DNA of 64,000 nt from an uncultured Pseudomonadales bacterium (GTDB lineage: Bacteria > Pseudomonadota > Gammaproteobacteria > Pseudomonadales > JADFDG01), in NCBI GenBank assembly GCA_964574995.1, contig CAZNPF010000007.1, positions 3,689 to 67,688 on the forward strand, written 5' to 3'. Shown here piece by piece: positions 9,326 to 42,305 of the stretch. The notes beneath the pieces are model-generated. The model had not been told where the DNA came from. It ran no database searches and was given only the letters and a program-made list of their open reading frames with translations. The stretch's first letter is position 1, and each line of letters opens with the position of its first letter. The translations under genes were made by a program, and so were the position numbers.

Positions 9326-9793
9326 ATGAAGACGCATGAGCAACCCGTGACCATCGGCGTGGCAGCCAAAGCCGCCGGCGTGGCGATCGACACCGTACGT
9401 TATTACGAACGGCAAGGCCTGCTGGCGGATGCGCCACGCACGGAAGGCGGATTCCGCTTATTCAGCACCCGCGACATCGAGCGGCTGCAATTTATCCGCA
9501 AGGCCAAGGCACTCGGTTTCACTTTAGACGACATCGCCGAGCTGCTACGCCTGCAAGACGGCGGCGGCACGCGGGCACGCGTCCGGGAACGCGCTCAAGC
9601 GCGCATCGCCGAACTCGACCGAAAAATCCAGGCCTTCACCGCAATCCGTGATGCGCTCGCGACACTGGAGCACTGCTGCAGCGGCCAAGGGCCCGTCGCC
9701 GGCTGCCCCATCATGGAAGGCGTCCGTTCGCTCGATTTGGAAAACCCCGAATTGGAAAATGCGGCACCACCGCTGACACGGAGGGCTCGCTGA
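9326..9793 (+). CDS. Heavy-metal-responsive MerR-family transcriptional regulator
   Basis: TIGVAAKAAGVAIDTVRYYERQGLL wHTH, LQFIRKAKALGFTL, C-terminal CCSGQGPVAGCPI metal loop. Confidence 0.93.
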   Translation: MKTHEQPVTIGVAAKAAGVAIDTVRYYERQGLLADAPRTEGGFRLFSTRDIERLQFIRKAKALGFTLDDIAELLRLQDGGGTRARVRERAQARIAELDRKIQAFTAIRDALATLEHCCSGQGPVAGCPIMEGVRSLDLENPELENAAPPLTRRAR

Positions 9794-38053: not shown

Positions 38054-38342
38054 GATGCGTATCCACTCTGATATGGAAATGTCACCCGTCAATGAACGGG
38101 GTTCAGCAAGACGTGACAGTGCAACATAAAACGCGGCGGATCATACACATTTGCTAACCCTTACAGCCCGTGCCAACGGCAAAGGCCCGGAAGCGCCTTG
38201 ATAGAATCCGCCCGCACTTCGTCGGCACATGCCGCATACGTTGTCTGCGCACACTTTGTCCCTGCAACGCCTCGTCAGTTCCCGCCCGCGGGCCCGACGG
38301 CCTCGCAGGCCCTGCCTATGTACGACAGGACCTAAAGACCTG

Positions 38343-38858
38343 ATGGAACGCAAGCACAGCTTTACCTACGAAGAATTACTCGCCTGTGGCCGTGGCGAGA
38401 TGTTCGGCCCCGGCAACGCACAACTGCCGCTGCCGCCGATGTTGATGGTGGATCGCATCACACAGATCAACACCACAGGCGGCAAACACGGCAAAGGCGA
38501 AATCATTGCCGAGTTCGACATCAAGCCGGACCTCTGGTTTTTCAAATGCCACTTCGAAGGCGACCCGGTGATGCCCGGCTGCCTCGGTTTGGATGCCATG
38601 TGGCAGTTGGTGGGCTTTCATCTGGGCTGGTTGGGCAGCCCCGGCCGCGGCCGGGCCTTGGGTGCCGGTGAAATCAAGTTTTTCGGGCAAGTGCTACCGA
38701 AAGCCAAAACCGTCACCTATCACCTGCACTTGAGCCGGGTCATCCAGCGCAAGTTGGTCATGGGCGTTGCCGATGGCCATATGTATGTCGATGGCCGCGA
38801 AATCTACACCGCCAACAACCTCAAAGTCGGCCTCTTCACTTCCACCGATAATTTCTGA
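38343..38858 (+). CDS. fabA: 3-hydroxyacyl-ACP dehydratase/isomerase FabA
   Basis: [38 protein letters not shown]. Confidence 0.97.
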
Positions 38859-38884: not shown

Positions 38885-40102
38885 ATGCGTCGCGTCGTCG
38901 TTACCGGCATGGGCATCGTCTGCAGCCTCGGCAACAATCCGGCTGAAGTGCTCGCTTCCCTGCGTGCCGGCAAAAGCGGTATCCGCTTTATCGAGCAGTA
39001 CAAAGAAATCGGCATGCGTTCGCATGTCGCCGGCCAAGTGAAAGATTTGGACGTGGATGCGCTCATCGACCGTAAGCAACGCCGCTTCATGGGAGATGCC
39101 GCCGCCTACGCGCACATCGCCATGCAGCAGGCCATCACGATGTCCGGGCTGACACCGGAGCAGATCTCGCATGACCGCACCGGTTTGATCGCCGGTTCCG
39201 GTGGCGCGTCCAGTTCCAACCAAGTCGAATCCGCCGAAGTGATGCGCACCAAAGGCGTACGTCGCGTCGGCCCGTATCAAGTCACCCGCGTGATGGGCTC
39301 CACGGTCTCGGCGTGTTTGGCCACCGGTTTTCAGATCCGTGGCGTGAACTATTCGATCTCCTCCGCCTGCGCCACCAGCGCGCACTGCATCGGCAACGCG
39401 ATGGAAGCCATTCAGTTGGGCAAGCAAGACATCGTGTTTGCCGGCGGTGCCGAAGAAGAACACTGGACGATGTCCTGTCTGTTCGACGCCATGGGCGCAC
39501 TCTCGGCCGGCTACAACGACACGCCGGAAAAAGCGTCGCGTGCTTACGACGCCAACCGTGACGGTTTCGTCATCGCTGGCGGCGGCGGCATGTTAGTGCT
39601 GGAGGAATACGAGCACGCGAAAAAACGCGGCGCAAAAATTCTGGCGGAGATCGTCGGTTACGGTGCCACCAGCGACGGGGCCGACATGGTGGCCCCCAGT
39701 GGCGAAGGCGCAAAGCGCTGCATGCAGATGGCGATGGCCACCGTCGACACACCGATCGACTACATCAACGCGCACGGCACCTCGACGCCGGTGGGCGATG
39801 TCGCCGAGCTGGGCGCGGTGCGCGAAGCATTCGCTGGCAAGGCCGTGCCGCCGATCAGTTCCACCAAATCGCTTTCCGGCCACTCGTTGGGCGCTGCCGG
39901 CGTCCATGAGGCCGTTTACTCGTTGCTGATGCTGCAAAACGATTTCATCGCCGCCTCCGCCAACGTGGAAACGCTGGACGAAAAAGCCAACGGCCTGCCG
40001 ATCGTCACGCAGCGCGTGGACAACGCGAAACTCACCACCGTGATGTCCAACAGTTTTGGCTTTGGTGGCACCAACGCCACGCTGGTGTTCCGCAAGGTGT
40101 GA
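38885..40102 (+). CDS. fabB: Beta-ketoacyl-ACP synthase I
   Basis: [36 protein letters not shown]; follows fabA. Confidence 0.97.
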
Positions 40103-40125
40103 ACGAAACCTTCATTCACCCTGTA

Positions 40126-40157
40126 ATAAAAAACCCGCCAGCCGGCGGGTTTTTTAT
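40126..40157 (+). terminator. Terminator after fabAB
   Basis: ATAAAAAACCCGCC-agcc-GGCGGGTTTTTTAT. Confidence 0.92.
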
Positions 40158-40171
40158 GGGCGCAACGTGTT

Positions 40172-40234
40172 TGCAAACGTTTGATCTCAGGGCGCGGCGC
40201 GTCAGCACCGTCGCGCCTTCGACGGTGGTTAGGG
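40172..40234 (+). mobile_element. Solitary attC-like integron recombination site
   Basis: AAC (40176-78) ... GTT (40228-30) ends, imperfect palindrome TCTCAGGGCGCG...CGCGCCTTCGA, ends in GTTAGGG; 63 bp; first box TGCAAAC deviates from RYYYAAC. Confidence 0.55.
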
Positions 40235-40247
40235 CCGCCGGTCCAGT

Positions 40248-40290
40248 TTGACAGGCGCATCCAACAGACATAGTCTTACCTTTGTCTTAC
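40248..40290 (+). promoter_or_regulatory. TA3 sigma-70 promoter and operator repeats
   Basis: TTGACA-N17-TAGTCT; GTCTTAC direct repeat at 40273 and 40284 (11-bp period). Confidence 0.75.
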
Positions 40291-40304
40291 TTTTGGAGCG
40301 CTCC

Positions 40305-40568
40305 ATGGAAACCACTAAGCTCTCCAGCAAAGGCCAAGTGATCATACCCAAGGCCTTTCGGAGCACCCATCACTGGGAGCCAGGTCTTGAACTCATGGTG
40401 ATCGACACCGGAGAAGGCCTGCTGTTGAAGCCTAAAGCCCCCTTTGCCCCCTCCGAGCTCTCGGAGGTTTTTGGCATGTTCAGAGGTAGGGTGTTGGCCA
40501 AGACTGACGAAGAGATTGAGGCCTCACTGACCCAAGACATGCGGAGAAAGTGGCGTGATAGCAATTGA
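40305..40568 (+). CDS. AbrB/MazE/SpoVT-family antitoxin, TA module 3
   Basis: METTKLSSKGQVIIPKAFR...PGLEL...LLLKP; GGAG RBS. Confidence 0.9.
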   Translation: METTKLSSKGQVIIPKAFRSTHHWEPGLELMVIDTGEGLLLKPKAPFAPSELSEVFGMFRGRVLAKTDEEIEASLTQDMRRKWRDSN

Positions 40569-40944
40569 TACCAATGTGCTGGTGCGCCTGCTGGTGAACG
40601 ACAACCCGACACAGGGCAAGGCCAGCCAGAAGCTATTCGCTTCCGAAGACATATTCGTACCGGACACGGTGCTGCTGGAAACCGAGTGGGTGTTGCGTGC
40701 CGCCTTTGACTTAAGCCCAGATGAAATCTGCACTGCCTTCCGGCGGATCTGCGGCTTGCCCAATGTAAACGTCAGCGACGGCCAACTGATTGCGCAAGTG
40801 ATCGATTGGCATGAGGCCGGTTTTGACTTTGCCGACGCGTTTCATCTCGCCTTGAGCAAAGAGCAAGACGCTCTCAAAACTTTCGACGCCAACTTCATCA
40901 AGAACGCCAAGAAGCATACCGACCGACGCGTGGAGCGGCCCTAG
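40555..40944 (+). CDS. vapC: PIN-domain toxin (VapC family), TA module 3
   Basis: MIAIDTNVLVR, LLETEWVL, DFADAFH, KTFD. Confidence 0.9.
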   Translation: MIAIDTNVLVRLLVNDNPTQGKASQKLFASEDIFVPDTVLLETEWVLRAAFDLSPDEICTAFRRICGLPNVNVSDGQLIAQVIDWHEAGFDFADAFHLALSKEQDALKTFDANFIKNAKKHTDRRVERP

Positions 40945-40954
40945 CGGGAGGCGC

Positions 40955-40987
40955 AAAAAAAACCGGGTGGCTTGCGCCACCCGGTTT
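40955..40987. terminator. Terminator between TA3 and porin (U-tract on minus strand)
   Basis: A8 then CCGGGTGGC-ttgc-GCCACCCGG-TTT. Confidence 0.85.
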
Positions 40988-41010
40988 CCTGTCTTCCCCG
41001 GTAAACCGGA

Positions 41011-42054
41011 TCAGAACTGTTGACGCAGGCCCAGACCAAAGGTGCCGTAGGTGTTGGTCGTGCCAGCACCGTTGTCGTTCTCCGATTGGCCCGCCAGAGC
41101 ATAGACCGTGGTGGACTTGCCGAGTGCGTAATCCGCACCCACGGCAATGGTCTGCACCGACGGATCATTACCGGTGGTATCGCCATCGACTTGGACGAAC
41201 TGGGCTTTGAATTTCCAGTCGCCGGCCGTCAGCGCACCGCTCAGCAGCATGGTGGTGTCTTCATCATGAAAACCTGGGCCCGTGAAAGATTCCTCGGCGG
41301 TCTGGTACAGGAAACCCACTTCCAGCGCGTCGGCTTTGTAGCCCACGACCGCACGCAGGGTGTCGACTTCGATGGTAGAGCCAATGGTCAAGCCACCGTT
41401 GGTGTTGTCGTTGACATTAGAATCCATCGCCAATGCCAGCGAGAGGCCGCCGGTCTGGTAGGTCACCGACGTGGACATCGACGGTTCCGTACCGCTGGAC
41501 TCCGAGTACGTGGTAGCAGCGACGTTGACGCGCAGGGCGTCGAGCAGCAGCGGCGAGGAGTACTGGATCACGTCAGCCAAGCGGTTCTCGGCGACAACGC
41601 CCGATTTCGTCATATCCAGCGAGGTGTCGTTGAATTGATCCACCGAGCCTTGGGCGGCTTTCAGCGGCGAATCGAACATACCGATTTTGACGGTACCGAA
41701 ATCACCGGCAACGCCGACAAAGACATCGCGCGAGGTGAATGGCAGCACACCAGGGTTACCCCAGTTATTGTTTGCATCGCCGTCATCCGCATCCACGCCG
41801 AACTCGGCTTGGTAAATACCCTTGAGGCCGGAGACGCTGGTGTCCACTTCACCGCGAACGCCCAAACGCGAGGCGTTGCTGCGAATGACCCACTGGTCTT
41901 CACTATTAGAAACGTCGTTGTCGTTACCGATGTTGTCGTTCACGTACTCTGCCGACAGATCGATTTGACCGTACAGCGTCGGGCCAGCAGCCAGAACGGT
42001 GGCAGGCATCGCCACTGCGGCGCCGATAGCAAGAGCAAGCAGCTTCTTATTCAT
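41011..42054 (-). CDS. Gram-negative trimeric porin
   Basis: Signal peptide, TLYGQID, NASRLGVRG, SRDVFVG, GADYALGKSTTVY, terminal Phe; AGGAG RBS. Confidence 0.92.
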   Translation of the reverse strand: MNKKLLALAIGAAVAMPATVLAAGPTLYGQIDLSAEYVNDNIGNDNDVSNSEDQWVIRSNASRLGVRGEVDTSVSGLKGIYQAEFGVDADDGDANNNWGNPGVLPFTSRDVFVGVAGDFGTVKIGMFDSPLKAAQGSVDQFNDTSLDMTKSGVVAENRLADVIQYSSPLLLDALRVNVAATTYSESSGTEPSMSTSVTYQTGGLSLALAMDSNVNDNTNGGLTIGSTIEVDTLRAVVGYKADALEVGFLYQTAEESFTGPGFHDEDTTMLLSGALTAGDWKFKAQFVQVDGDTTGNDPSVQTIAVGADYALGKSTTVYALAGQSENDNGAGTTNTYGTFGLGLRQQF

Positions 42055-42305
42055 GTAGAAACACTCTCCTTGATCAAGGGAAAAACGCTACAGGAAGTTC
42101 ATCTTCGCAGCACACCGTAACGGTGAAACCGCGTAACGATGGATCCCTGGGAGGCACCGCGAATATTCGATTTCAGTGCCTGCCGAGCCGGACGATAATC
42201 CAAAAATCCGCGTTTTGCACCGTGTTGACGCAAAATAAACGCTGGTTTTGCACAAAAAACGAGCACGCAAAATCAGGCGTCTAGGCTAGGCGTCAGCGGC
42301 AAGAA

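Follow-up and report, generated by a model that had tools for sequence, protein, structure and literature searches.

A toxin-antitoxin module beside fabB as the probable relic of an inverted integron cassette

How did a toxin-antitoxin module with the marks of an integron gene cassette come to stand between fabB and a porin gene, with no integrase in its neighbourhood? The module, which consists of a gene for an AbrB-type antitoxin followed by a gene for a VapC toxin, lies in a 64-kb stretch of DNA (64,000 nt, hereafter the window) from an uncultured Pseudomonadales bacterium. A preliminary description of the locus had proposed that a cassette, together with the attC site of the cassette before it, landed at a housekeeping locus and became fixed there. 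Cassettes start at a GTTRRRY core, in which crossover takes place between G and TT (written G/TT below). On the evidence presented here, we consider it probable that positions 40178–40944 (767 bp) are one complete integron cassette, inverted, lying outside any integron and placed by an integrase at a genomic GWT site. The coordinates of all features are collected in Table 1.

Homologues in cassette arrays and orientation of the cassette

For the detection of attC sites we used two covariance models. The first, R1, rests on an alignment of 10 real attC sites taken from plasmid-borne class 1 arrays; the variable centre of the alignment was trimmed, and the canonical R and L pairings plus the L'' bulge were retained. 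When tested on 14 full-length attC sites within the plasmids from which they came, R1 recovered all of them, at 39–62 bits, one of these sites having been held out of training. For the second model, R2, which is broader, a set of 22 hits was used, among them environmental sites and the nearest relatives of the element in the window. Three other approaches were abandoned: a hand-written attC finder demanding complementarity of R'' and R' missed real sites, R' being part of the cassette that follows; MAFFT alignment of full-length sites misaligned the L' boxes and was replaced by the centre-trimmed alignments; and thermodynamic folding, taken by itself, could not tell real attC sites apart from background.

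Both models were run over approximately 170 loci encoding members of the toxin-antitoxin family (designated L and a number), and several of these loci proved to be cassette arrays. For example, a metagenome contig whose toxin is 57% identical to that of the window (L099) carries four canonical attC sites (40–48 bits), two of which flank the toxin-antitoxin pair. Three sites of 20–30 bits were found in L040 and one of 31 bits in L008. In the closest homologues (L178–L183, toxin 91% identical), an attC site of 22–29 bits (28.8 bits in L181) directly abuts the toxin stop codon, and a second, weaker one follows the next open reading frame (ORF); in L177 (toxin 90% identical), three sites of 22–27 bits (R2) follow small ORFs. 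A 19.8-bit site (R2) also abuts the toxin stop codon in L011, from Thiobaca trueperi, where an integron-type integrase is represented, 1.4 kb away, by an N-terminal fragment of 62 aa (50% identity to IntI1); this locus looks like a decayed two-cassette integron. For most family members no attC site was detectable nearby. The occurrence of homologues in cassette arrays bears out the earlier proposal that the module comes from an integron cassette. Among the plasmids of PLSDB, there was no close homologue, the best being at most 47% identical.

The L011 locus (NZ_SMAO01000006, 9576–12044) has further features of its own. Its module stands between genes for a Na+/H+ exchanger and a hydrolase, an AT-rich ORF of 346 aa without a Pfam match is also present, and just upstream (9576–9619) there is a run of the hexamer (CGACAA)n.

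In which direction does the cassette run? According to the preliminary description, it would start at GTTAGGG, upstream of the antitoxin gene, would have kept the attC site of the previous cassette and lost its own (GCGGCCCTAAC at the toxin stop codon), and would have been locked in by a change of AAC to AGC. Such a forward arrangement is suggested by three observations. An attC site is near-palindromic, so that GTTAGGG/CCCTAAC can be read as R' or as R''; attC-like sequence is present after the toxin stop codon in L178–L184 and L087, with several upstream contexts; and the outer R box of that attC site marks exactly the point past which L180 and L181 diverge. However, wherever a confident attC site lies beside a family member (L099, L040, L008, L177, L178–L183 and L011), it lies on the strand opposite to the toxin-antitoxin genes. 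R1 scored the attC sites of the family at 29–48 bits on the opposite strand, compared with less than about 9 bits on the same-sense strand, in every case, and spacers of 5 and then 6 nt together with the L'' bulge match class 1 top strands only in the inverted orientation. All other cassette ORFs of L099 are on the attC top strand, that is, opposite to the toxin-antitoxin pair. In addition, sites 3 and 4 of L099 are identical attC sites on different cassettes within one array, which accounts for the divergence between L180 and L181, and the forward arrangement would need two ad hoc breakpoints that both happen to fall on R-box edges. We regard it as improbable, and the start at GTTAGGG is not supported.

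The inverted arrangement is defined at both ends. In model alignments, R' (GUUAGGG) falls exactly over the last proline codon of the toxin gene, its TAA stop codon and the following C in L099 and L181. At the other end of the L099 module, the R'' box GCCCUAAC lies 11 nt beyond the –35 box, and a 47.8-bit attC site of the same array has GTTAGGGC as its R''. As judged from these comparisons, the family travels as an inverted cassette, which starts at the toxin stop codon and ends with an attC site just upstream of its own promoter. We consider cassette ancestry in this inverted orientation to be very likely.

Two sequences of other kinds were met in the same survey. A homologous module, 82% identical, is located elsewhere in the genome of the metagenome-assembled genome (MAG) JADFDG01, the same MAG as L084 (L006, 9850–10000 and 10391–10560). 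It is flanked by several palindromic repeats of about 65 nt (GTAGCGAGGG...CCCTCGCTAC) without AAC/GTT ends, which look like REP-type (repetitive extragenic palindromic) sequences rather than attC sites. An 8-nt match between the window and L008 after the stop codon (CGGGAGGC) was rejected as a shared attC remnant; it is host porin-terminator sequence and matches by chance.

The decayed cassette of the window

Measured from GTTAGG to the toxin stop codon, the module is exactly 717 nt long, and it is 83–85% identical among the window, L177, L178, L181 and L184. The window, L177 and L184 share the same GTTAGGGCCGCC at the module edge, outside which their contexts differ; the counterpart of GTTAGGGCCGCC in L178–L183 is GTTAGGTCCGAC. 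L177 and L184 end in GCGGCCCTAAC, with a TAA stop codon, and there the 11-nt complementarity between the two ends of the module is perfect. In the window, GTTAGGGCCGC (40228–40238) and GCGGCCCTAGC (40935–40945) pair at 10 of 11 positions, including a perfect 9-nt inverted repeat, and the sole change is AAC to AGC, as had been described. When compared with the relatives, this complementarity corresponds to the stem of R'' and R' expected in a circularised cassette, which agrees with the earlier interpretation of it as a cassette feature.

The 63-bp element upstream of the module, about 15 nt after the fabB terminator, reads TGCAAAC-GTTTGA-...-CGGTG-GTTAGGG. In a blastn-short comparison (E = 1e-7), positions 40178–40218 proved identical at 37 of 41 sites to the attC site that precedes the module in L184; the identity to the model-positive attC sites of L178 and L181 is 34–35 of 41 sites. 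The preliminary description was therefore right to derive this element from attC. Because the site is shared upstream of the module in the window and in L184, however, the element is the cassette's own attC and was co-inherited with the module; it was neither left by a previous cassette nor lost, but is present in a decayed state. The co-inheritance is a further argument against the forward arrangement.

Decay is visible at both ends of the cassette. Relative to the L184 type, substitutions have broken three of the seven L-box pairs, and the 10 nt next to R'' have changed and now pair with a portion of the variable centre in a new perfect 8-bp hairpin; these alterations explain why the models fail on the attC site of the window. 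At the toxin end, L177, L178–L184, L003, L099 and L040 have CCCTAAC where the window has CCCTAGC. This TAA to TAG change of the stop codon is silent and converts the crossover triplet GTT into GCT, so that the single mismatch between the two 11-mers does fall in the crossover triplet. As it stands, the module has no model-detectable attC site, starts with GCTAGGG instead of GTT and lies outside any array, and does not qualify as a functional cassette. As the descendant of a cassette it does qualify, with cargo, boundaries and attC site all homologous to those of cassettes at loci with model-positive attC sites.

Compared with the L184 attC site, the differences over 40206–40227 form a cluster in the 10 nt, to which the opposite arm adds two changes. 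One might speculate that this pattern fits a template-switch (quasi-palindrome) mutation better than independent substitutions.

The attC type of this family can be written AACGTTTGAGCTCAGG...GAATTGTT. In a sludge metagenome that contains the present locus (run X4), another contig carries the same attC type (41 of 43 sites identical over 40176–40218) with unrelated flanks and an intact ...GCAGCGAATTGTTGGGC end; the community thus probably harbours an integron with attC sites of this family. In L184 (1–1500), an insertion sequence (IS) of the IS110/IS1111 type, with a DEDD transposase and subterminal inverted repeats GGACTCCTCCC / GGGAGGAGTCC, is located inside the cassette attC, between the R''-side spacer and L''. 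Only IS end remnants (GAGTCYRYATACGAAT) are found in L177 (4340–4365 and 5085–5115), on both sides of the module. An attC-targeting group of IS1111 elements is known, and the elements of L184 and L177 fit it.

Could the module instead be an ordinary VapBC system acquired by generic horizontal transfer, its attC-like features being due to chance and to coding constraint on the toxin C-terminus? Taken alone, the three features from which the cassette had originally been proposed are weak evidence. The AAC and GTT ends of the 63-bp element and its position were correctly reported, but the element is a poor end-to-end palindrome. Folded as single-stranded DNA, either strand has instead a minimum-free-energy structure in which a local hairpin (CACCGTCG/CGACGGTG) prevails, with z-scores of –1.9 (+ strand) and –0.9 (– strand). 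By itself the structure does not exceed chance, and its significance comes from homology. For the terminal repeat, the 150 nt upstream were dinucleotide-shuffled 20,000 times, and 50 of the shuffles contained a match of at least 10 of 11 to the observed 11-mer (p = 0.0025); with any 11-mer of the 41-nt tail allowed, the figure was 192 of 3,000 (p = 0.064). On its own, the inverted repeat is thus of marginal significance. Moreover, GAGCGGCCCTRR is partly fixed by coding, because the toxin ends in ...VERP and a stop codon throughout the family. GTTAGGG occurs once in the 64 kb, and the window has no match in Rfam. The absence of a score from both covariance models and the lack of detectable attC sites near most family members also fit an origin outside integrons. 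On the other hand, such an origin leaves unexplained the 37/41 identity to a real attC context and the exact retention of GTTAGGGCCGCC at the module edge in orthologues within attC arrays, and coding constraint cannot account for the complementary copy upstream of the promoter. An origin without any integron link is already contradicted by the homologue data, and we consider it highly improbable. Of three outcomes that the preliminary description had named as refuting a cassette origin, only the lack of an attC model score was obtained; homologues in arrays and the 11-nt complementarity in orthologues were both found.

A tblastn search with IntI1 as the probe (799 bits in a validation with NCBIfam NF011946) found no integrase-like sequence in the 64 kb, in line with what had been reported for the neighbourhood of the module. 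Outside the locus, the best model hits reached about 10–12 bits (two with R1), which is chance level, and no other attC site was detected.

The toxin-antitoxin pair itself looks intact and self-regulated. It has the architecture of a type II VapBC system, with a PIN-domain toxin that retains its acidic residues and an overlapping upstream gene for a DNA-binding antitoxin. The residues D5, E42, D94 and D111 of the toxin are invariant in the family alignment (3,050 toxin homologues were retrieved), and its gene starts with GTG and overlaps the antitoxin gene by 14 nt; the toxin would be active. The –35 box, the –10 box (TAGTCT or TAATCT) and the GTCTTAC repeats are kept in dozens of homologues, and this conservation suggests that the region acts as promoter and operator. 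A generic promoter scan did not call TTGACA-N17-TAGTCT, because the –10 hexamer has only three of six matches. The promoter had been noticed earlier, at a distance from GTT given as 20 nt; the distance is 17 nt.

Placement of the cassette and the missing porin gene

Homologues of FabB place the source of the window among the uncultured Gammaproteobacteria of wastewater or sludge. We compared the locus with those of four relatives (L083–L086), whose FabB proteins are 85–87% identical to that of the window. All four have the gene order ccmF-fabA-fabB-porin-porin-moeA and no toxin-antitoxin module at this locus. They carry two porin genes in tandem between fabB and moeA, whereas the window carries one (41011–42305, compared with 6375–8708 of L083 and with L084–L086). 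The porin of the window is 46–51% identical to the second porin of the relatives versus 42–43% to the first. The cassette thus occupies the position of the fabB-proximal porin gene of the relatives with its terminator and promoter, approximately 1.35 kb. The comparison of the fabB-porin junction, which the preliminary description had called for, therefore confirms that the module is missing in relatives, but landing at a housekeeping locus is too simple a description of what took place. The gap between fabB and the porin gene of the relatives was considered as an empty site and ruled out, the porin of the window being the relatives' second one. Four metagenome runs yielded no contig with the locus minus the cassette; as contigs show presence only, this carries little weight.

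Similarity to the relatives delimits the foreign DNA closely. On the left, it runs to approximately 40178, where AACGTGTTTGCA--AAC aligns with AAGCTGCTTGCACTGAAC after the fabB terminator of L085 and L086; at this point similarity to the relatives ends and similarity to attC begins. A hairpin equivalent to the fabB terminator of the window is also found 3' of fabB in the relatives. On the right, similarity resumes at approximately 40945, where CGGGAGGCGCAAAAAAAACCGGG... matches CGGGGACAGGCACAAAAAAACCGGG... in the terminator region of the second porin gene of L083; the L083 sequence aligned to the right flank is CGGGGACAGGCACAAAAAAACCGGGCGGCTTGCGCCGCCCGG. The module thus sits between the fabB terminator and the porin terminator, and by this comparison 40178–40944 is foreign DNA. 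Read on the – strand, the segment runs from host ...CCTCCCG / cTAGGG-toxin-antitoxin-promoter-GGCGGCCCTAAC-CACCG-...-TCAAAC G / TTTGCAAAC... host. Both boundaries are within 1–2 nt of the two points at which a single cassette would cross over (G/TT), and the host side of the junction reads CCCG/TTTGCA on the – strand, with a GTT in the palindrome GTTTGCAAAC.

These observations are consistent with the following history. On the – strand, the cassette would begin at the toxin stop codon, where the ancestral G/TTAGGG is the reverse complement of Pro-TAA-C, and would end in its own attC, which runs from R'' (CCCTAAC), at a distance of about 13 nt from the –35 box, to ...TCAAAC-G. An integrase from elsewhere would have inserted the circular cassette, via its attC, at a genomic GWT ('attG') site, and the palindrome GTTTGCAAAC, read on the – strand, would supply the TT of the presumed G/TT target. 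The junction before insertion would have been ...GTGTTTGCAAA/CGGGAGGCGC.... The deletion of about 1.35 kb might have preceded the insertion, might have followed it through recombination of the cassette attC with a nearby GTT, or might reflect another rearrangement. The cassette would now be immobile, because GTT has become GCT at the toxin end, the L''/L' pairing is destroyed and the 64 kb hold no integrase. As for the specific step of precise placement by an integrase at a genomic GTT, we lean towards it.

The same inverted cassette could also have arrived without such placement, as the remnant of an array or of a CALIN (cluster of attC sites lacking an integron-integrase), by transformation and recombination, with an IS1111-type element, or in one non-integrase rearrangement that also removed the porin gene. 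The cassette replaces a porin gene and does not lie in a site that is contiguous in the relatives, the half of its attC next to R'' is rearranged, IS110/IS1111-type elements or their end remnants lie beside the cassette in L184 and L177, and homologues occur in short arrays without an integrase, all of which would suit an origin of this kind. However, a random breakpoint would not be expected to fall within 1–2 nt of a G/TT point at both ends of the foreign DNA, no further attC or cassette DNA could be traced in the 64 kb, and there is no IS sequence at the junctions. We therefore consider these routes, taken together, unlikely.

Several points weigh against insertion of an inverted cassette by an integrase. 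Both R1 and R2, run with filters off, gave no hit at 40100–41000; by structure, the element is not recognisable as an attC site today, and the case rests on homology. The models, whose training sets were small and mainly of class 1, give only approximate E-values. We read the orientation from neighbours and relatives; the signals of the decayed attC itself are ambiguous, since the 5- and 6-nt spacers fit the – strand and the side of the bulge does not. The 10 nt next to R'' are wholly different from the L184 attC, the rest being 90% identical, which may point to something besides point-by-point drift. Finally, the two host flanks are never adjacent in the relatives found, a porin gene lying between them, and these relatives are distant (about 13–15% FabB divergence), so that a simple one-step insertion is not demonstrated.

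A more far-reaching idea concerns the stop codon. Toxin genes that are abutted by attC end in CCCTAAC. Where no attC was detectable, many copies have TGA or TAG as the stop codon, with C as the next base. Each of these two codons is one transition away from TAA, and the change destroys the GTT crossover triplet and leaves the protein unchanged. Since the crossover site lies in the toxin gene, a selected silent stop-codon switch could be a recurrent one-step domestication, and the porin gene could have been lost through an integrase deletion between attC and GTT. If true, the rationale for selection would be that excision of a toxin-antitoxin cassette kills the cell. A test of whether TAA goes together with neighbouring attC would be circular, because an attC site abutting the stop codon must contain GTTA. 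We regard this extended scenario as doubtful.

Upstream of fabB, the fabA ORF (38229–38858) is 209 aa long when called mechanically. FabA of the relatives has 171 aa and the FabA domain begins at residue 66, so the true start is probably about 38 codons downstream of 38229.

Table 1. Features of the fabB-porin region in the window
Feature	Position	Strand	Remarks
fabB	38885–40102	+	fabA-fabB pair precedes the module
fabB intrinsic terminator (host left flank)	40126–40157	+	perfect 14-bp inverted repeat, then T run
Host spacer	40158–40177		ends in palindrome GTTTGCAAAC (40169–40178)
Cassette's own attC, decayed	40172–40234	-	only 40178–40234 is cassette DNA
attC boxes		-	R'' CCCTAAC, spacer CACCG, L'' TCGAAGGC, centre, L' CCTGAGA, spacer TCAAAC, R' GTTTGCA
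Local perfect 8-bp hairpin CACCGTCG-CGCCTT-CGACGGTG	40206–40227		occupies spacer and L'' portion of attC
GTTAGGGCCGC, reverse complement of R'' (GCGGCCCTAAC)	40228–40238	-	left edge of conserved 717-nt module
Putative promoter/operator	40248–40290	+	–35 TTGACA 40248–40253; 17-nt spacer; –10 TAGTCT 40271–40276
Direct repeat GTCTTAC-N4-GTCTTAC	40273–40279 and 40284–40290	+	over –10 box, operator-like
Antitoxin, AbrB/MazE/SpoVT-type, 87 aa	40305–40568	+	PF04014, E 7e-8; TIGR01439, E 4e-10
Toxin, PIN-domain VapC, 129 aa	40555–40944	+	PF01850 PIN, E 4e-12
Inactivated cassette start CCCTAGC (reverse complement GCTAGGG)	40939–40945	-	ancestral G/TTAGGG
Host right flank	40945–41010	-	spacer CGGGAGGCGC and porin terminator 40960–40987 (inverted repeat)
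Porin gene	41011–42054	-	convergent to fabB; orthologue of relatives' second (moeA-proximal) porin gene

Comparison with known systems

The genes of the module are themselves ordinary. They share with AbrB/SpoVT-type VapBC systems the gene layout, the acidic residues of the PIN domain and the AbrB DNA-binding domain. As for their position, resistance cassettes are known at secondary sites of plasmids, such as aadB in RSF1010-type plasmids and dfrA14 within strA. Like these, the window module would be a complete cassette at a simple GTT-type site outside an integron, hard to excise; they are promoterless plasmid resistance genes, whereas the module is a chromosomal toxin-antitoxin pair with decayed sites.

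Toxin-antitoxin cassettes carry their own promoters (PMC11023631), and the superintegron of Vibrio cholerae contains a parDE3 toxin-antitoxin cassette with its promoter opposite to the array (10.1101/2023.11.21.568050). The present family resembles these in being a type II pair with its own promoter in a cassette, with members in arrays (L099, L040, L177 and L178–L183). In contrast, the copy in the window is outside an array and cannot stabilise one, and the family is of the AbrB-VapC type, belongs to uncultured wastewater and environmental Gammaproteobacteria, and has its R' core in the last proline codon and stop codon of the toxin gene. The comparison documents a widespread environmental VapBC lineage that moves as an inverted cassette whose recombination core overlaps the toxin stop codon.

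The closest parallel is found in the isolated cassettes (SALINs, single attC sites lacking an integron-integrase). Insertion of cassettes at genomic 5'-GWT-3' (attG) sites and the abundance of SALINs have been described (Loot et al., bioRxiv 10.1101/2022.09.11.507474), and the same study holds that isolated cassettes may become domesticated as attC is lost, and reports deletions of the attC x nearby GTT kind around inserted cassettes (10.1101/2022.09.11.507474). Hence, the route that the preliminary description had proposed was already known, and the locus is a natural example of a known event that reveals no new mechanism. It does offer a natural, well-delimited cassette in the course of being absorbed into a chromosome, with junctions, decaying attC and inactivated core all readable, and through it environmental sequence data lend support to the attG/SALIN route.

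Like a SALIN, the window locus consists of a single cassette with one attC, without an integrase or other attC nearby and with G/TT junctions beside a host GTT; its attC is decaying as predicted for domesticated cassettes, and like a SALIN cassette it would be expressed on its own. It differs in that its insertion is deduced from natural sequence and was not observed, in that its cargo is a self-promoted inverted toxin-antitoxin pair, and in that it takes the place of a porin gene of the relatives, with an associated deletion. A further difference is that its attC fails the attC models and would probably be missed by standard detection, being known here from homology. Such fossils can thus fall below detection by attC models, and counts of isolated cassettes are likely to be underestimates.

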